DNA from: a virus
Reading direction: 5' to 3' (one strand)
UHGV virus genome: UHGV-0247912
Length of the DNA stretch: 12,589 nucleotides
Shown here: one piece after another, positions 2,006-10,521 of the stretch
Numbering within the stretch: the stretch's first letter is position 1
Layout: each line of letters opens with the position of its first letter
Program-made: the position numbers and the translations under genes
Notes under the pieces: model-generated
The model's input: only the letters and a program-made list of their open reading frames with translations
Told to the model about the DNA's origin: nothing
Database searches by the model: none

Positions 2006-2182
2006 TTACGCCACTGTTACATTGTCAACCTTAATAAAATATTCAGGATGATTTTCTATTTCGTGCTTAAAGTGCGCGTGACACAATCGCCACTCACGCG
2101 CCTGGTTGTGAAAGTAATAAACGTATTCGCCATCAACCTTATACAAAATGCCTGTAGGTTTAGCCATGTAATAACTAGCCAT
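2006..2182 (-). CDS. small hypothetical protein (59 aa), nin-region ORF
   Basis: Found by manual translation (below the ORF-track size cutoff): MASYYMAKPTGILYKVDGEYVYYFHNQAREWRLCHAHFKHEIENHPEYFIKVDNVTVA. ATG overlaps the NinB stop (TAATG), suggesting translational coupling. No family recognised. Confidence 0.35.
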   Translation of the reverse strand: MASYYMAKPTGILYKVDGEYVYYFHNQAREWRLCHAHFKHEIENHPEYFIKVDNVTVA

Positions 2183-3023: not shown

Positions 3024-3547
3024 AACTCTAACCCAGTTTCGCTGTTAAGTTTTTCGATTTCAAATACTGGTTTATCCGGCAGCAGGCCGTTATTTTTCCG
3101 GTATTCGTTCAGGCGGCTGTTAAATTCAAATACGATAGGACTCGAACAACCATAGAAGCGAGCTGATCTAAAAAAGTATTTCCCATCAAATTTATTAATT
3201 GTTAATAAATTTTCACTGCCTAACATCTTTAAAACCCGACAAATTTTCCTCTGTTTTATTTCGAGTTTTAATTCTTTTTTAACATCCTCAGCAGAAAAAT
3301 AATCGCTACTATTTAGAAATAAAGGCATGATTTTTTTTATTGCCATTTCGCGCACTGACTTCAAGCAATATGATAATCGCGGCCCTCCCATTTCCACAGG
3401 AATAATAGCGCCGTCAGAAACCATATCACGCAAACTATTAACGATCTCGATTTCAGGACCTGGAATAGATTTAATAATTGTTGCTTCACCAGCAACAGTG
3501 GCATCCTGTAAAAATTTCGCTATTTGTGTTTTATAAATGGTTTTCAT
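3020..3547 (-). CDS. hypothetical protein (175 aa), strongly low-GC cargo gene (moron candidate)
   Basis: ORF 3020..3583 in the track; ATG at 3547 preferred (GAGG about 9 nt upstream; the 3583 start is GTG inside the terminator hairpin). GC counted at about 30% over 3121-3360 against about 52% in the adjacent helicase gene. Possible winged-helix-like segment near the C-terminus. No family recognised. Confidence 0.6.
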   Translation of the reverse strand: MKTIYKTQIAKFLQDATVAGEATIIKSIPGPEIEIVNSLRDMVSDGAIIPVEMGGPRLSYCLKSVREMAIKKIMPLFLNSSDYFSAEDVKKELKLEIKQRKICRVLKMLGSENLLTINKFDGKYFFRSARFYGCSSPIVFEFNSRLNEYRKNNGLLPDKPVFEIEKLNSETGLEL

Positions 3548-3626: not shown

Positions 3627-5042
3627 TTAAAAAGATGCGTTATTCTGATTGTTTCGTTGGTTAAATCGGCTTGTGCGATGATTCATGGACTGAATACATG
3701 CAGACGCTGCGCGGGCCTGGTCACAAGGGAGGATATTGCCGTTGTCATCAAACCGCTGGTAAACAGTGCCAGTTTTCCCGTGACGGTTTTTAGATACAAT
3801 TATTTCCATATATTCGCGTGCTACAGACTGTTCATCGTAGTAACCATCGCGGTACACCATGATGATCCTGTCTGCATCTTGCTCAAGGTTCCCTGAATCA
3901 CGAAGATCAGAATTGTTAGGACGCTTGTTCGGGCGCTCCTCAACGCGGCGGGACAACTGCGCCAGCGCCAACACTGGTACGCGCAATTCTTTCGCCATCA
4001 TCTTCAACGACCACGACAATTGCCCTACAGCGAGATCGTGACGTTCGGCCTTAGCCAGCTTCATCAACCCTATGTAGTCAATCATTACCATACCCATGCT
4101 GGGGTGTTCCTGTTTCATCCGTTCTACGGTGGCGCGCATTTCCTCAACCGTTAACTGCGAAGCGTCAACGATCCACACATCAAGGTTAGCAAGTGCGCTC
4201 ATTCCCTGGCCGACATGCGCCCAACCATCATCATCAAGTTTTACCGGATTGCGCAGGCAGTCAGTTGATAAATTACCAGCGCCAGCGATGGCACGTTCGG
4301 TCATCTGATCGAGTGACATCTCAAGCGTGAAGAACAAAACGCCAACACGCTGATCCTTGCTGCCAGGGTAAGGGCATTCAGCAGCAGCGCGGGCAATTGC
4401 CAGCGCCAACGCAGATTTACCAGACCCAGGACGTCCGGCGAGAAGCACCAAATCAGTAGCGTTAATGCCGCCTAACATTTCGTCGAGTGGTTCTATCCCC
4501 GTTTTGATGTTGTCAGAATTGACACCGCATTCCATGCGTTTGCTTAACACCTCCGTGTATTCCTGTACCGCATCGCGCAACAACACCGGAATGATCTTGT
4601 CTTTCGTTACCTTTAATTTTGAATACCGGGAATCAAAATCCTTCATCGTTTCTTTGACTACTTCAAGCGTCCCCGTTTCCAGTTTGTAGCGCATATCGTC
4701 GATGAGTTCCAACATCTGCCGCCGCTGGTGCTCTTCACGTAGTAGCTGTGCGTATCCCTTCAGGTTGGCAGCAGAAGGACACGATCGCGCCGTTTGCATC
4801 AGTGGTACAAAGTTTTCATTGCCAATCTCATCGCCAACCAATAACGCGTCTATAAGATTTCTGTTTCTGGCTTGCGCCCGGATAACTTCAAACGCACGTT
4901 TATAAAGCGGGATCGTGAACACTTCAGGATCAAGCGTGGCGAGAACATCTTGCGCGTTAGGAGTAAGGCCACCCAACAACAGCCCGCCGATAACTGACGC
5001 CTCACGTTCCTGCCGTAGTGAGTTTATTTGCTCAGTTACCAT
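3627..5042 (-). CDS. replicative DNA helicase, DnaB family
   Basis: 471 aa; Walker A GRPGSGKS, DnaB-type motifs (FFTLEMS, IIVSKNRHGKTG, RFDDNG); RBS GGAGGAAA 8 nt before the ATG at 5042. C-terminal tail is longer than in E. coli DnaB. Confidence 0.9.
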   Translation of the reverse strand: MVTEQINSLRQEREASVIGGLLLGGLTPNAQDVLATLDPEVFTIPLYKRAFEVIRAQARNRNLIDALLVGDEIGNENFVPLMQTARSCPSAANLKGYAQLLREEHQRRQMLELIDDMRYKLETGTLEVVKETMKDFDSRYSKLKVTKDKIIPVLLRDAVQEYTEVLSKRMECGVNSDNIKTGIEPLDEMLGGINATDLVLLAGRPGSGKSALALAIARAAAECPYPGSKDQRVGVLFFTLEMSLDQMTERAIAGAGNLSTDCLRNPVKLDDDGWAHVGQGMSALANLDVWIVDASQLTVEEMRATVERMKQEHPSMGMVMIDYIGLMKLAKAERHDLAVGQLSWSLKMMAKELRVPVLALAQLSRRVEERPNKRPNNSDLRDSGNLEQDADRIIMVYRDGYYDEQSVAREYMEIIVSKNRHGKTGTVYQRFDDNGNILPCDQARAASACIQSMNHRTSRFNQRNNQNNASF

Positions 5043-5060
5043 TATGTTATTTCCTCCGGT

Positions 5061-6179
5061 TTACAAAATGGAAAATTCAGGGTAATAAACAAAGCGCCCG
5101 ATCTCTCCATGATCCTGGCTGTAAATAATAACCGCCGCCAGGCGACGCGACCGCCAGCCGCCATTAGTCGAATAGGCATCCTTACCCGCTAACGTGCCGT
5201 GATACTCAACAACGCCAAGCGATGACTCGATCAGCCGTTGATGATGCCAGTGCCCGCAGTGGGCGTAAACAGCAGCAGACTTGCCGAAATCCTCGCGCCA
5301 GTCAGCTACGCAAGCAGACAATAAATTTTCTGGCTTTTTGATAGTGTGCCCGTGGTGGTAAGCAAGAAATGTTTTGCCGTACTGTGTGTGGTGGACGATA
5401 GCAGGGGACACATCAACCGTCACGCGCGGTTCATCTTCGTAAAAAGCCGCCAGCGCCGCACGTAGCCAAATCATGCCTGACTGATCGTGATTGCCTGATA
5501 ACACCTGGATTTCAACATCTTTATGATTTAACAACATCTTTCCTACCGCCCGCCGTACAGACCGGATCGCCACATAAACAAGTTTTGCGTAGCGACTATC
5601 CTGATCAAGAATATGCCCGCTTGTTGGCGTAACCGGGACCATACCATCAGAATGAAGCAGGTCACCACCGAGAAGTAAGACGGCTTTTTCAGACATCGGA
5701 GCAGCGCCAACGGCATAATCAAAGAAGTTATTTAGCACGCGTTCAGCGATCCCAGTGTCGTAGCTCTCGCCGCATTCAGCTTTATGGGCAAGCGCCCCGA
5801 TATGCAGATCAAACACAGGATAAAGGGCCAGGCTTTTTTGAAAATCAATTTCAGGCACTGGCACAGCCTCCGCGCGTGGTATTTCATCAGTGAAAGCGTC
5901 GCGGGCCGCTTCCATTAGCTGTTCCATTTCTTCGCGGTCACGGGCTGTTTTAATCCAGCGCATGATAACATTGCCGTTCTTATCCACTAGCAACGACTCA
6001 CCATTGACGCCAAAACCAGGCGCGCGGCGTGTTGATAATAAACCCCGTTTCGCCAGTTTTGCGCCCAGGCGTTCGACATTGCGTTTAGACATGCCGTACT
6101 TTTCAGCGATCTGTTTGTACGTTAATCCGTTGTTATATTCAGCGATCAATTGCTCATCACTGATTTTTCTTTGCGACAT
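5061..6179 (-). CDS. HTH domain + calcineurin-like metallophosphoesterase domain protein (372 aa)
   Basis: ATG at 6179 with GGAGGG RBS (the track start at 6203 is an alternative start codon). N-terminal HTH (LTYKQIAEKYGMSKRNVERLGAKLAKRGLL); phosphoesterase-type motifs FDLH, GGDLLHSDG, GNHD, HHGH, GHWHH. Confidence 0.7.
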   Translation of the reverse strand: MSQRKISDEQLIAEYNNGLTYKQIAEKYGMSKRNVERLGAKLAKRGLLSTRRAPGFGVNGESLLVDKNGNVIMRWIKTARDREEMEQLMEAARDAFTDEIPRAEAVPVPEIDFQKSLALYPVFDLHIGALAHKAECGESYDTGIAERVLNNFFDYAVGAAPMSEKAVLLLGGDLLHSDGMVPVTPTSGHILDQDSRYAKLVYVAIRSVRRAVGKMLLNHKDVEIQVLSGNHDQSGMIWLRAALAAFYEDEPRVTVDVSPAIVHHTQYGKTFLAYHHGHTIKKPENLLSACVADWREDFGKSAAVYAHCGHWHHQRLIESSLGVVEYHGTLAGKDAYSTNGGWRSRRLAAVIIYSQDHGEIGRFVYYPEFSIL

Positions 6180-6212
6180 AATGTTAATCCCTCCAGTTAA
6201 CAAAATGTATAC

Positions 6213-6944
6213 CTACTTACACGCAAAAAGTTCAGACACCCAAAGTTGACCCTTAGCAGTAAATAGTGATTGGACGTAACCTCCAGCCGAACATTTTACC
6301 ACTCCATAGCCTTTGTCTACGAACCACTGCTTGAACATACGCCCGCCGCGCTTAATTCTCGTATCGTACACGTCAACCTGTTCAAGTTTTTTGTTGAGTT
6401 GCGTAGCAGTCATACCCAAAGGCTTGGCAACCTGTGTAGCGTTGCGATGCTGTTCGTTTCTTACAATCGCATCACAGACAGCCGCTTTCGGTGCTAATTC
6501 CTTATTTTCCAGCGCCAGACGATCAATTTCTTTCTGTGCTAATAGTTTTTGTTCAACCTCATCAGCCCATGCGCGAGCCGCCGCCACCGGATCAGTGAAA
6601 TCCGGCAAAGCTGGCTGCCGTACCTGTTTTTCGAGTTCCTGCCAGCGATCGACAAGTCGCGCCGTAAATTCAGGGCAGTTTTGAGCAACGACAATTATAC
6701 TATCTCGCTTGCCCTGCTCGCCTTCAAAAACGTAGGCCTTATCTTTTACCTTGAATCCTAAGTTATTGATTCTTTCGAGAAACTGCAATGCAGGACGCCG
6801 GATTACACCTTTATCAGCAAGGCGTTCTATAGAAACAAGCATGTTATCGTGACGGAACTTATTAACTCCGTTCCACTTATTTAGAAAATCAACGATCTCA
6901 ATACTGTTCATCTTAACAGCATCAAACACCATTAATTCAGACAT
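6213..6944 (-). CDS. rha: Rha-family phage regulatory protein / antirepressor-like (Rha N-terminal domain + ANT/KilAC-like C-terminal domain)
   Basis: ATG at 6944 with GGAG RBS. N-terminus has SIEIVDFLNKWNGVNKFRHDNMLVSIERL (the RHDN signature of Rha); C-terminus has ATQVAKPLGMTATQLNKKLEQVDVYDTRIKRGGRMFKQWFVDKGYG. Confidence 0.7.
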   Translation of the reverse strand: MSELMVFDAVKMNSIEIVDFLNKWNGVNKFRHDNMLVSIERLADKGVIRRPALQFLERINNLGFKVKDKAYVFEGEQGKRDSIIVVAQNCPEFTARLVDRWQELEKQVRQPALPDFTDPVAAARAWADEVEQKLLAQKEIDRLALENKELAPKAAVCDAIVRNEQHRNATQVAKPLGMTATQLNKKLEQVDVYDTRIKRGGRMFKQWFVDKGYGVVKCSAGGYVQSLFTAKGQLWVSELFACK

Positions 6945-7076
6945 TGTAATTTCTCCGTAAAACGCGCTACAACGCAAAAATCCCACCGCGTAACCCGTTT
7001 GCACAGGTTGCAGTGTCTTATTGCGTTATAGACGCTCTCAGGTGGCTAATTTTTGATTTACAGGATGGTATGAAGG

Positions 7077-7311: not shown

Positions 7312-8364
7312 TCAAAGAGCGCCACATCGTGTATCACGTAGCGTTTTTGGTTTAAGCAGGAAATCAAGTGTCGCAGTGAAGCCATCGCCGAAGTAAAAAT
7401 CTGAAGCATTGTTTTTGAACGTTTCAAAGTAGGCGACAAAGCCGTTAATGCTTTTGTCTTTCAGGTAGTCAGTGAACGCATAAATCTTGCGTTCAAGATC
7501 CCGATCCAGTTCGGCAGGTGGCAACATGCCATCAAACGTGCTGTTAAATGCCTCCACTACGTCGGCAGCGTTTGCAGTGGCTGACAGTTTGCGCCATTTT
7601 TCAGCATCAGCCAGATACCCATCAAATTTAGTCACCCGGCAAATGTTTATAGGCTTAGGTGTTCCACCACGGCTACGCCATTGCGTTAAAGCCCACTCAA
7701 TCACTAATGTGATCTCATCCTCCGTATACGCTTTACGTGTTTTTGTTTCTGTCAGTAGTTCTACGAATGGCTTAGCATCACGACATTTACACCCTGCCTT
7801 TTCGTTGTAGAAGTCAAGGCAACGCAATGCCGCATCGCTTATCTGAAAGTCACCATCCTGATTAACTTCTTTTCTTTTTATATTTTTCTTTTCTTCTTCT
7901 GTTTCTTTTTCTTCTTCTACTTCTATTTCTAATTCATGACCCTTTCCTGACCCGGTCATGACCCTATCATGACCCTTTGGTGTTGGATTGATTAACTTTT
8001 CTAATTTTAATTGCTCCTTCGCTGTGTTTATGGCGGCCCTGTAAGCGCTTTTAGAAGTCATTGATTGGTCCAGCCTTTTCAATAACTTTAAACAAGTTAT
8101 GTGGCCTTGAGAACATTCAAACAAACCAATTTCGATGAAGTATTTCATCATTTCTTCTATACGTTTTTCAGTAGATCCGACGTTTCGCGCAATGATTCTC
8201 GCGTCATGTCGTAGGTCAAAAGTCAGATTGTGCTGATCTACGTCATAAGTTATTAGTTCGAGGCAATACCAATAAAGCCCGTACCCTTCCAGGCCATAAT
8301 CTAACAAAACGTTTTGAAGTTTTTCATCGCGGTTCGCATCGCTGTCATGCTTAAACCACTTCAT
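7312..8364 (-). CDS. replication initiation protein / replisome organizer (O-like, phage replisome-organizer N-terminal domain type)
   Basis: 350 aa; N-terminus MKWFKHDSDANRDEKLQNVLLDYGLEGYGLYWYCLELI matches the replisome-organizer N-terminal domain pattern; acidic/basic linker; RBS GGAGGG; lies directly downstream of the immunity region. Confidence 0.8.
   Translation of the reverse strand: MKWFKHDSDANRDEKLQNVLLDYGLEGYGLYWYCLELITYDVDQHNLTFDLRHDARIIARNVGSTEKRIEEMMKYFIEIGLFECSQGHITCLKLLKRLDQSMTSKSAYRAAINTAKEQLKLEKLINPTPKGHDRVMTGSGKGHELEIEVEEEKETEEEKKNIKRKEVNQDGDFQISDAALRCLDFYNEKAGCKCRDAKPFVELLTETKTRKAYTEDEITLVIEWALTQWRSRGGTPKPINICRVTKFDGYLADAEKWRKLSATANAADVVEAFNSTFDGMLPPAELDRDLERKIYAFTDYLKDKSINGFVAYFETFKNNASDFYFGDGFTATLDFLLKPKTLRDTRCGAL
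7861..7933. repeat. AT-rich homopyrimidine/homopurine tract next to the iterons (candidate DNA unwinding element)
   Basis: About 70 bp almost entirely C/T on the plus strand (cttcttttctttttatatttttcttttcttcttctg...); encodes the Glu/Lys-rich linker of the initiator. Confidence 0.5.
7934..7977. repeat. four tandem 11-bp iterons (TCATGACCCTT-like), candidate origin of replication inside the initiator gene
   Basis: Plus strand units: 7934-7944 tcatgaccctt, 7945-7955 tcctgacccgg, 7956-7966 tcatgacccta, 7967-7977 tcatgaccctt. Units 1 and 4 are identical; the period is one helical turn. Confidence 0.6.
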
Positions 8365-8367
8365 AGA

Positions 8368-8625
8368 TCATCCCTCCGGCAACATCACTACATAGACATC
8401 ACTGAATGCATCAAGACGACAAACAAATCCTTTATCCATTAACGCGGCGAAGGCATCATGTACCGTATGAACAGGAAGTTCACACATTGCGGCTACTTCT
8501 TTGCGTGATGCATCATGTACCCGTCCTTTGTTATCTGCCTTTTCAGCCAGAGCCATTAAGACAAGTTTTTGAATCGGGCTATTAAGTTTTACGTTCCATG
8601 CTTTACTAATCATGTTTATACTCAT
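8368..8625 (-). CDS. small HTH / winged-helix DNA-binding protein (85 aa), first gene of the rightward-type operon (Cro/CII position)
   Basis: ATG at 8625 with AGGAG RBS (track ORF 8368..8703 starts earlier without an RBS); KLVLMALAEKADNKGRVHDASRKEVAAMCELPVHTVHDAFAALMDKGFV looks like a winged-helix DNA-binding domain. Confidence 0.55.
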   Translation of the reverse strand: MSINMISKAWNVKLNSPIQKLVLMALAEKADNKGRVHDASRKEVAAMCELPVHTVHDAFAALMDKGFVCRLDAFSDVYVVMLPEG

Positions 8626-8733
8626 CGCATTTTCTCCTATGGTTAGAGTGAACGCGCGGGCGGGCATCCCATTAGCATTAGATAGCAGTGACTGACCGCT
8701 CAACAGATCCCGCCGTTGCGTGATATTTGTTTT

Positions 8734-8809: not shown

Positions 8810-8929
8810 CGTCTTTGCAAGTATGGCCTTACCTTGTCTGCAAGTTTACAAAATGGAATTTTAAGATCAAGGCTTAAAATACACGTTTTGTGACTTGCAT
8901 CAAACTTTTTGAGGTTATAGGGTAGCGAC
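8810..8929. promoter_or_regulatory. divergent immunity control region (PR-like and PRM-like promoters, candidate operators)
   Basis: Lies between the divergent cI-type gene and the minus operon. Heptamer TGCAAGT at 8816-8822 and 8839-8845 and its complement ACTTGCA at 8893-8899. Possible minus-strand promoter TTGATG (8905-8900), 16-nt spacer, TATTTT (8881-8876). Exact operators and promoters are not resolved. Confidence 0.4.
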
Positions 8930-9577
8930 ATGAAAACAAAATGGTATGACTTAGCAAAGCAGCTCATGCGGGCGCAGGGCATGAGCCAGGATTCACTCGC
9001 GGATCGTATGGGGATAACTAAAGGCGGCCTGTCACACTGGCTGAACGGTCGCCGAGAGCCAAATCTTGAAGATATTGCGCGGATTATGCGCGAGCTTGGT
9101 CGTCGGCAGTTTACTGTTACACATGATGGCATGGTCATTGATGATTCTGTTTCTAATACACTTCAGGCCGTGCCGCCGCGTGATTTAGGTAGTTACCCGG
9201 TTATTGACTGGAAGGACACAGTAAACAATATGGATGACGCAAGGCGTTCAGCATTACGACACGTTACGACTAGCGTTATTTGTTCAGATGACAGTTACTG
9301 GCTGGTTGCCAAAGGTGAATCAATGAACGCGCCGCAGGGGTTGAGCATCCCGGCGGGGACGATGATACTTGTGGACCCGCACGCGCCAGCTATTGACGGC
9401 AAACTGGTTATAGCCCAGCTTGAGGAAGGGCAGATACCGACGTTTAAACAGTTGATTATTGATGGAGGTCAAAGGCTTTTACGTTCGCTCAATCCGCTGT
9501 ATCCGCCAATCCCTATGAATCCAGAATCAAAAATTATAGGCGTGGTGGTTGATGCGAAGATCGTAAACCTGCCATAA
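8930..9577 (+). CDS. cI: cI-type phage repressor (N-terminal HTH, C-terminal LexA/S24 autopeptidase domain)
   Basis: 215 aa; HTH GMSQDSLADRMGITKGGLSHWLNG; C-terminus GESMNAP...TFKQLIIDGGQRLLRSLNPLYPPIP parallels lambda cI ([24 protein letters not shown]) including the catalytic Ser and Lys. Confidence 0.9.
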   Translation: MKTKWYDLAKQLMRAQGMSQDSLADRMGITKGGLSHWLNGRREPNLEDIARIMRELGRRQFTVTHDGMVIDDSVSNTLQAVPPRDLGSYPVIDWKDTVNNMDDARRSALRHVTTSVICSDDSYWLVAKGESMNAPQGLSIPAGTMILVDPHAPAIDGKLVIAQLEEGQIPTFKQLIIDGGQRLLRSLNPLYPPIPMNPESKIIGVVVDAKIVNLP

Positions 9578-9582
9578 ACATT

Positions 9583-9607
9583 AGCCGCCGAATGGCGGCT
9601 TTTCTTT
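9583..9607 (+). terminator. rho-independent terminator after the repressor gene
   Basis: AGCCGCC-gaat-GGCGGCT (7-bp GC-rich stem) followed by TTTCTTT, 6 nt after the stop codon. Confidence 0.65.
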
Positions 9608-9699
9608 GCCTGGAAAACACCAAAACGTAAACAGAAAACGTTATTTATTATTTAAATATCAATGGCATATAAAATATTTTAAAAAAGTATACAAAATGG

Positions 9700-9728
9700 A
9701 TTGACTCGATGTTTTACGGGGCGTATAT
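9700..9728 (+). promoter_or_regulatory. strong sigma70-type promoter (PL-like), AT-rich upstream region
   Basis: -35 TTGACT (9700-9705), 17-nt spacer, -10 TATATT (9723-9728); very AT-rich 9640-9698 (UP-element-like). Confidence 0.5.
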
Positions 9729-9983
9729 TGCGAGTCAAAGGAAGGGCGCAGGTAACAAAAGCAACTTCCTGGCACTTTAAAAATCAGGCTTAACACCTTG
9801 TCAACCGTGGAGTAACTCCCCGATGGGGGACCGAAAGCGGCACTGATAACAAGGCGCATGGGGTGTTTAAAGCGTTACATCCCCCACGAAACCGCACGCA
9901 AGGCGACGAGTCAGCTTGCTTGGAGTGAGCAAGGTCACGCCGGGAACGGCGATGATTGCGGGATTAGTTGAAAGATGTTAAGC

Positions 9984-10077: not shown

Positions 10078-10368
10078 ATGAGCGTTACAATTATATATGG
10101 TAAATGTGATAGCAAAATGAATGCCAGGGAACGCAGAAGGATAAAAAGAGAAAACGAAAGAAAATCATCACCTGCAATCAATAAAACAGACAATGTGGAT
10201 AAAGCTATTCGATTTGCAAACGAGGAAAGATGCAAACCAAATAGCATTAAAGAACGTCGCAAAGGATCAGTAAAATGGTATACGGAAAATGAAAGCGGCA
10301 GCTACTACCACGCAACGCAACCACGCCATTTAGGGGAAAAACCCCTGGATAAAGTCCGCTACCATTAA
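10078..10368 (+). CDS. N: N-like transcription antitermination protein (arginine-rich motif)
   Basis: 96 aa; N-terminus MSVTIIYGKCDSKMNARERRRIKRENERK has an arginine-rich motif like lambda N (MDAQTRRRERRAEKQ) and, from memory, P22 gp24; first gene after the PL-like promoter and nut-like site; RBS GGAG 8 nt upstream. Confidence 0.7.
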   Translation: MSVTIIYGKCDSKMNARERRRIKRENERKSSPAINKTDNVDKAIRFANEERCKPNSIKERRKGSVKWYTENESGSYYHATQPRHLGEKPLDKVRYH

Positions 10369-10398
10369 TACAAAATGTAAACATCCGGAGGTGACATT

Positions 10399-10521
10399 AT
10401 GGTTATTCAGGCGCTTCAATTCAAACTGGCAGTAGCGGAAATGCTTCACGATGCCGAAATGTGGAGCGCCGCGAATAAAGCCTTATACATAGTGTTAACA
10501 GCACGGGAGATTAAATGGTGA
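10399..10521 (+). CDS. small hypothetical protein (40 aa), translationally coupled to erf (Arf-like position)
   Basis: Manual translation: MVIQALQFKLAVAEMLHDAEMWSAANKALYIVLTAREIKW. RBS GGAGGTGA before the ATG at 10399; its stop overlaps the erf start (ATGGTGA). Confidence 0.45.
   Translation: MVIQALQFKLAVAEMLHDAEMWSAANKALYIVLTAREIKW

Follow-up and report, generated by a model that had tools for sequence, protein, structure and literature searches.

Three genes in the early region of UHGV virus genome UHGV-0247912, of which a stretch of 12,589 nucleotides was analyzed (here called the window), begin with closely similar DNA, and the question that this locus raises is what the shared sequence does. 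The genes encode a DnaB-type helicase (3627-5042), a phosphoesterase with an N-terminal helix-turn-helix (HTH) domain identified by Pfam (5061-6179), and a short open reading frame (ORF) of 40 amino acids, the 40-aa ORF. An earlier note on this DNA read the shared segments as translation-initiation elements and offered two functions for them, a translational control element common to these genes or a boundary sequence used in module exchange. Comparison with related phages and prophages leads us to consider it likely that the shared element is instead the immunity operator of a CI/LexA-type repressor, present in extra copies at gene starts, and that it silences these genes at the level of DNA rather than tuning their translation.

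The similarity of the gene starts was reproduced and extended. At the coordinates of the earlier note, 5043-5073 and 6180-6210, the helicase and phosphoesterase starts agree at 24 of 31 ungapped positions, and at 26 of 31 once the ATG codons are aligned; the 171 pairs of gene-start 31-mers in the window have a mode of 9 to 13 matches and an average of ∼11. The next-best pairs, with 20 and 19 matches, join the 40-aa ORF start to the helicase and phosphoesterase starts, and in the coliphage mEp021 (82 genes, 3321 start pairs) the two top pairs, with 24 and 22 matches, again come from these three genes. What is shared has three parts, a 17-bp element 5' of the Shine-Dalgarno (SD) sequence (5059-5075, 6196-6212, and 10366-10382), a GGAGG, and an ACAT[AT]ATG at the start, and the pattern GAGG-N2-8-ACATWATG is restricted in the window to the starts of the three genes. 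When aligned, the likeness extends beyond the SD sequence and start codon. The 40-aa ORF does provide a third similar copy, but its sense arrangement is a different one: all three copies have the core ACAAAATG on the + strand, and the transcripts of the two leftward genes would therefore carry it in antisense, as CAUUUUGU, and that of the rightward 40-aa ORF in sense, as ACAAAAUG.

The 17-bp element is a pseudo-palindrome with the consensus GT[AT]TACA-AAA-TG[GT]A[AT][AT]C (GTWTACA-AAA-TGKAWWC) and a dyad core ATACA-N3-TGTAT, and its arms are unequal, one good and the other weaker. The core ACAAAATG was observed 8 times in the window, with 0.99 expected and none of 200 dinucleotide shuffles reaching 8. 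The + strand has seven of the eight, with start positions at 2143; at 5063 for the helicase and 6200 for the phosphoesterase; at 8848, in the region that separates the repressor gene from the divergent MarR-like gene; at 8936, by the start of the repressor gene; at 9691, immediately 5' of the best promoter in the window; and at 10370 for the 40-aa ORF. TACAAAATGK was found 4 times (0.13 expected), and a scan for the arms only (GTWTACA / TGTAWAC) gave 4 sites with at least 12 of 14 matches, compared to 0.16 in shuffles. A position weight matrix (PWM) for the 17-mer returned 8 sites of at least 13 bits versus 0.17 in shuffles, a comparison that is partly circular, the matrix having been trained on sites of these genomes, while the k-mer statistics are free of that circularity. 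Chance is excluded as the origin of the shared element. Further copies, absent from the earlier note, lie at 2139, 8844, 8932, 9687, and 10483.

The repressor gene (8930-9577, + strand) encodes HTH_3 and Peptidase_S24 domains (Pfam, 1.5e-12 and 5.8e-19, respectively), and its product is 95% identical by BLASTP to Rep021 of mEp021, which was shown experimentally to confer immunity by blocking infection by six phages of the mEp021 group (PMC11893012). Copies of the motif overlap both predicted early promoters around this gene. O1 (8844..8860, GTTTACAAAATGGAATT, 22.7 bits) covers the -10 (TAAACT, 8848-8843) and the spacer of an inferred leftward early promoter, TTGATC-16-TAAACT, whose -35 TTGATC is at 8870-8865. 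O2 (8879..8895, AGTCACAAAACGTGTAT on the - strand) is an inverted copy whose core is perfect (CATTTTGT) in most relatives, and O3 (8932..8948, GAAAACAAAATGGTATG, 14.3 bits) overlaps the repressor start codon and codons 2-6. On the other side of the gene, the copy at 9687..9703 (GTATACAAAATGGATTG, 23.1 bits) abuts and overlaps the -35 of TTGACT-17-TATATT (9701-9729), which is predicted as the rightward early promoter and, of all promoter matches in the window, is the best. Besides the nut boxA, the motif is the only substantial element that the two early regulatory regions have in common.

The main reason for assigning the motif to the repressor comes from prophages that are otherwise of a quite different type. 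Rep homologues with 43-52% identity and the recognition helix kept are found there, with ATACA-N3-TGTAT arrays to either side of the repressor gene, at the expected places of OR and OL, 3+3 sites in L056 and L057 and 3-4+2 in L054. L054 and L055 carry a DEAD-box helicase, a primase, and a Q antiterminator (sites 6925, 6958, and 6983, then 7769 and 7794); L056 is from Enterobacter (sites 128, 161, and 187, then 919, 964, and 989, followed by boxA); and L057, from Tatumella, is a textbook lambdoid prophage with cro, cII, O, P, and N (sites 2920, 2953, and 2979, then 5336, 5366, and 5391). Since L054, L056, and L057 are without the phosphoesterase and the MarR-like gene, the arrays around their repressor homologues point to the repressor as the protein that recognizes the motif. 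No PWM copies away from the arrays were found in L054, L055, and L056, which were the prophages covered by that scan, and a looser scan for the arms gave a few 8/10 matches beyond the arrays, roughly as many as in shuffled sequence. Judging from these sequences, the repressor, and presumably also its Cro analogue, would bind the motif. As a candidate for the specific binder, the MarR-like protein encoded in the Cro position (8368-8703, first gene of the leftward operon) is unlikely: across relatives it is 29-100% identical while the motif stays, and the L051 lineage has an HTH_3 Cro-like gene in its place.

The distribution in mEp021 extends the motif well beyond the repressor region. In the 6.7 kb of intergenic DNA of this phage an unbiased k-mer count ranks ACAAAATG as the most over-represented 8-mer (13 observed, 0.35 expected), and TACAAAATG was observed 10 times with 0.1 expected. 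PWM matches are intergenic in 18 of 21 cases in a genome of which 12% is intergenic (p=4e-14), and ∼20 copies are dispersed in mEp021-like phages. The rightward early promoter of mEp021 is among the places marked by copies. Every reverse-oriented cassette in the mEp021 tail region (gp63; gp65-68; gp71-74, with an antirepressor; and gp80-81, with an exclusion lipoprotein) carries the motif at its divergent promoter region, sometimes as inverted pairs, and the cassette promoter copies lie at record coordinates 37646-37687, 42045-42061, 43917-43970, and 52943-52993 (our L002 locus coordinates equal record coordinates minus 15000). This suggests that the cassettes are repressor-controlled early genes. 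A motif-N-(-35)-17-(-10) geometry is common to window positions 9687-9729 and the promoters of mEp021 gp68 (TTCACA/TATATA) and gp63 (TTCACT/TATAAA), and because the motif is 5' of the -35 at these promoters, a role at the level of RNA is inapplicable there.

Four copies in the window fall into the short gap that separates a stop codon from the following SD sequence, at the helicase, the HTH-phosphoesterase, the 40-aa ORF, and erf. Site 1 (5059..5075, GTTTACAAAATGGAAAA on the + strand, 21.7 bits) sits between the phosphoesterase stop codon (TAA, 5063-5061, within the motif) and the helicase SD, and a weaker partner (AATAACATAATGGTAAC on the - strand, 5035..5051) overlaps the helicase start codon (5042-5040). 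The partner is centered 24 bp away with the SD GGAGG (5057-5053) between both copies, and it is the best-scoring neighbor within 18-30 bp, at exactly -24 (7.2 bits, per-position p=0.0009). Site 2 (6196..6212, GTTAACAAAATGTATAC on the + strand, 21.2 bits, arms 13/14) is set between the KilAC/ANT-like stop codon (6215-6213) and the phosphoesterase SD (GGAGGG, 6194-6189); its partner (ATTAACATTATGTCGCA on the - strand, 6172..6188) overlaps the phosphoesterase start codon (6179-6177) and is likewise the best neighbor, exactly -24 bp away (per-position p=0.006). Site 3 (10366..10382, TAATACAAAATGTAAAC, 19.2 bits) is placed between the stop codon of an N-like antiterminator gene, a Gp17 homologue, and the 40-aa ORF SD (10387-10391), with a partner (GGTGACATTATGGTTAT on the + strand, 10390..10406) over the start codon (10399-10401) that is the best neighbor at exactly +24 bp (per-position p=0.003). 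The SD-to-ATG distance at site 3 is unlike that at sites 1 and 2, yet the 24-bp spacing of the copies is retained. In the copy next to erf (10483..10499, TTATACATAGTGTTAAC, arms 12/14), which immediately precedes the SD of that gene (10505-10509), the dyad arms are good and the center is not an A-tract, and a further copy (2139..2155, TTATACAAAATGCCTGT, 18 bits) is found between ninB and the next leftward gene.

Conservation was followed in 43 IMG/VR relatives, across which the repressor is 90-100% identical and the motif is retained at all orthologous positions. The site 1 core is unchanged in 27 of 28 sequence variants and one base off in the last. At site 2 the sequence is TATACATTTTGTTAAC, TATACAAAATGTAAAC, TATACAAAACGTAAAC, or TATACATTCTGTAAAC, with a center that flips or varies and retained arms TATAC...GTAAAC. 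The site 3 17-mer is conserved with a variable spacer to the SD, the 2139 copy has a G/T core variant, and the rightward promoter keeps its motif and both hexamers invariant with a variable spacer; the O1 left half and promoter hexamers are conserved, again with a variable spacer. All three switch-region copies (O1, O2, and O3) are conserved in the relatives and also in L051. The more diverged L051-L053 have the same synteny as the window, with amino acid identities of 56% for the helicase, 73% for the phosphoesterase, and 55% for Rep, whose recognition helix GITKGGLSHWLNGRREP is identical in them. They carry TATACAAAA[TC]G at O1-O3, at the rightward promoter, and 5' of the helicase gene and the 40-aa ORF, and in L053 only also 5' of the phosphoesterase gene; the L051 copy matching the site 3 position is at L051 11279. 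The L051 copies are mostly sense in both operons, following the direction of transcription, unlike those of the window. Upstream of the L051 helicase gene the arrangement is GTTAACAAAACGTATAC-AGGAGG-ATGTG-ACAAAATGG, two direct copies 24 bp apart, and the perfect core ACAAAATGG stands at the same 24-bp offset as the site 1 partner in the window. Direct repeats make hairpin pairing impossible there, and together with the 24-bp spacing that is kept despite a varying SD-to-ATG distance this indicates that the conserved feature is a two-site arrangement in DNA and not an RNA fold.

The window belongs to a temperate coliphage of the mEp021 (mEpimmI) group, whose early/immunity region it represents, and its DNA identity to mEp515 and mEp021 is ∼89%. 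The gene order listed for the window starts with an integrase, and the leftward operon, which opens with the MarR-like gene, includes a Lin1244-type replication protein (7312-8364), the KilAC/ANT-like gene (6213-7004), the phosphoesterase, and the helicase and has ninB as its last gene. The slot 5' of the phosphoesterase gene (window 6213-7004; L004-L007 in relatives) is occupied by KilAC/ANT, BRO, Rha, a zinc-ribbon protein, or nothing, with the junction at ∼6211. A terminator (9583-9600) follows the repressor gene on its 3' side, and the rightward operon runs from the N-like antiterminator Gp17 (10078-10368, first gene) through the 40-aa ORF to erf and ssb. Downstream of both early promoters there are boxA-like sequences, CACTTTAAAAATCA (9775-9788, + strand) and GCTCTTTAAAAATC (8765-8753, - strand), which coincide with the published nutR1 and nutL positions for the Gp17 antiterminator; the L051 boxA, GCTCTTTAACAAAATGG, itself scores as a motif match.

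Other features of the switch region were also recorded. The strongest promoter, TTGACT-17-TATATT, is flanked by an 8-bp inverted repeat, TTGACTCG ... CGAGTCAA (window 9701-9739). TGCAAGT occurs three times between the divergent MarR-like and repressor genes, at 8816 and 8839 (+ strand) and 8893 (- strand), and may represent either a portion of the promoters or another type of binding site. By eye, a possible maintenance promoter for the repressor, TTGCAT-17-TAGGGT, was seen at 8895-8930; transcription starting at the A of the ATG would possibly give a leaderless mRNA like that of lambda cI, with O2 then near -43. Inside the repressor gene a motif-like GTAAACAATATGGATGA (13.3 bits, 9221-9237) is present in most relatives, and its retention may be simple protein conservation.

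We propose the following working scheme for the copies at gene starts. Both during the establishment of repression and in the lysogen, dimers of the repressor would occupy the sites, probably as cooperative pairs, and the bound repressor would either block the entry of RNA polymerase into the replication and recombination genes or form loops with the operators at the promoters. In lambda, adjacent operators are 24 bp apart and show pairwise cooperativity. It is by analogy with this pairwise cooperativity and with the stoperators of mycobacteriophage L5 that we suggest cooperative binding and a roadblock or looping role. The mRNA leaders would then be alike because two DNA-binding sites, a strong copy and a weaker copy over the start, bracket each SD, and their likeness would be a by-product.

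Several observations weigh against reading the motif as the repressor's operator. The operators of Rep021 were left undefined in the paper that established its immunity function (PMC11893012). Although the window has operons in both directions, its 8 strong copies all lie on the + strand, for which a symmetric site gives no reason, and dyad symmetry is imperfect, and the second arm weak, in most window copies, while the central A-tract is conserved beyond what would be expected for the operator of a dimeric HTH protein. Some PWM matches merely reflect boxA or the SD-N-ACAAAATG context of a start codon. In some of the relatives site 2 has degenerated or disappeared, and it is dispensable in them. 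At the rightward promoter the lone strong site spans about -49 to -33 (near -41), a typical activator position, and given this position the motif may serve activation there. Finally, the switch-region spacing is ∼35 and 53 bp, versus 33/25 bp in the lambdoid relatives.

One alternative takes up the second suggestion of the earlier note, that the element is a recombination linker, a gene-boundary sequence that mainly serves module exchange between diverged phages. The correlation behind this suggestion is real at two places: the homology of ∼10 prophages to the window stops at 6211, the outer edge of site 2, whose upstream neighbor is one of at least 7 unrelated genes among the relatives; mEp021 (L001 6080-6583) and mEp515 have an HNH endonuclease gene, absent in the window, directly 5' of site 1 (window 5076-5080); and BLAST homology endpoints cluster at 5070-5080 and 6190-6220. 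The coincidence is confined to sites 1 and 2, however, with 6 of the 8 strong copies not at breakpoints, and larger clusters of endpoints at 3130, 3540, 6610, and 6960 are without the motif, so that most breakpoints lack the motif and most copies are not breakpoints. Gene boundaries are breakpoints in mosaic phages regardless, and neither the promoter copies nor the repressor-flanking arrays of lambdoid prophages would have a linker role. We consider exchange as the main function improbable; the association with module boundaries is possibly a side effect of having a conserved regulatory site at a gene boundary.

The other suggestion, a shared translational control element, was right in that the three genes share a control element that is more than an SD sequence and an ATG, but action at the level of mRNA fits poorly. 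Such an element could be a hairpin that hides the start codon with the SD in its loop or an AU-rich UUUUGUAAAC that enhances ribosome binding. In its favor, the motif adjoins a strong SD, GGAGG, in four cases, the three regions all have a minimum-free-energy fold in which the motif pairs with the start-codon region, and the sense strand of site 2 resembles the T7 gene 10 leader (TTTTGTTTAACTTTAAGAAGGAGATATACATATG). The hairpins in these folds are weak (-4.6, -8.2, and -4.9 kcal/mol; z scores of 0.5, -1.5, and 0.7 relative to shuffles), and the L051 helicase copies, as direct repeats, are unable to pair. The RNA sequence is also unlike between genes (CAUUUUGU versus ACAAAAUG), the orientation flips between relatives at one site, most copies lie at promoters or elsewhere without an adjacent start codon, and the arrays around homologous repressor genes in unrelated prophages have no place in a translational scheme. 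We thus find this explanation very unlikely. When folded, the three regions and one mEp021 site gave hairpins no better than those of shuffled sequences, and an Rfam scan of the window matched no family.

Least credible to us is a binder other than the repressor, either a host regulator such as OmpR, whose site at Yersinia pestis ompF (TTTACATTTTGTAACACATA; PMC3050692) resembles the motif, or a phage protein such as an early activator or the HTH-phosphoesterase, whose gene, with its N-terminal HTH, is flanked by sites 1 and 2; the centering of the 17-mer near -41 at three promoters would suit a class II activator, but OmpR sites are tandem direct half-sites while the motif arms are inverted, and L054, L056, and L057 have arrays at the expected OR/OL positions without phosphoesterase or MarR-like genes. 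Candidates set aside on inspection were CII-like activator-dependent rightward promoters (by eye, no -10-like hexamer at a fixed distance 3' of the motif); a -35 or -10 role for the motif in internal or antisense promoters at sites 1-3 (a conserved partner hexamer is lacking); UP elements, Fis, IHF, and the DnaA box, which, by eye, match partially and leave the invariant C and TG unaccounted for; and the target of an HNH homing endonuclease, given ∼20 motif copies of which most are far from any HNH gene. The DNA 5' of site 2 is non-homologous among relatives. A literature search for the motif strings returned primers and one OmpR site only.

Under the operator interpretation, the mEpimmI coliphages, which are common in the human gut, have a candidate operator sequence for their immunity repressor, and the predicted direct targets of this repressor are the helicase, the phosphoesterase, erf/ssb, and the tail cassettes, including the antirepressor and exclusion lipoprotein. 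The interpretation also carries a caution for annotation, as DNA-binding sites squeezed into short intergenic gaps can yield near-identical translation-initiation regions. A bolder version, which we offer tentatively and regard as rather doubtful, is that an SOS-cleavable lambda-type repressor with ∼20 operators silences the whole prophage by roadblocks or multi-site looping, through pairs bracketing ribosome-binding sites and through the tail-cassette promoters, as a Gram-negative, dyad-site counterpart of the stoperator system, with the sites perhaps also used as crossovers in module exchange. In the accessible literature we found no description of a lambda-type dyad operator at ∼20 sites including pairs around ribosome-binding sites.

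A CI-type operator is a known kind of element, and L5-type phages and P1 provide known cases of dispersed operators. In the switch region the resemblance is closest to lambda OR1-3/OL1-3, the operators of CI and Cro. The two have in common a repressor that combines an HTH with an S24 self-cleavage domain and an operator, putative here, that is a pseudo-dyad of 17 bp in which one half fits the consensus and the other is weaker. In both, copies lie over two early promoters around the repressor gene and one covers the start of that gene, neighboring sites are spaced by 24-26 bp, and N-like antitermination with nut sites follows downstream. In lambda, however, there are six operators, all at two promoters, whereas here ∼20 copies are spread genome-wide, several of them within operons beside ribosome-binding sites and others at the promoters of reverse-oriented tail-gene cassettes; the motif sequence is unrelated to the lambda half-site TATCACCGC, and the switch-region spacing differs. 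Phage P1 C1 has many operators around its genome, one of which controls the operon of a DnaB-type helicase (ban), and it therefore resembles the present case as a prophage repressor with scattered operators and a helicase operon among its targets. C1 is not of the S24 type, and it recognizes an asymmetric 17-mer (ATTGCTCTAATAAATTT) that generally lies over promoters, unlike the dyad motif of the window, its copies between stop codon and SD, and its S24-type repressor. In two papers on mycobacteriophage L5 and Cluster A, the stoperators bound by the repressor gp71 are described as many sites, mostly in short intergenic gaps within operons, that are proposed or shown to halt transcription elongation in the lysogen (PMC9283540, PMC6550527). 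The predicted sites described here are similarly numerous and dispersed in short intergenic gaps within operons. L5 stoperators differ from them in being asymmetric 13-bp sites for a monomeric, non-CI repressor, set in one orientation relative to transcription, while here the sites are dyads in 24-bp pairs proposed to bind a CI/LexA-like protein, and their orientation relative to transcription is inconsistent, antisense in leftward and sense in rightward genes of the window and mostly sense in both directions in L051. Should the copies within operons work as roadblocks or as anchors of loops, silencing by dispersed operators would reach beyond mycobacteriophages and P1 and would have arisen with a lambda-type repressor too.

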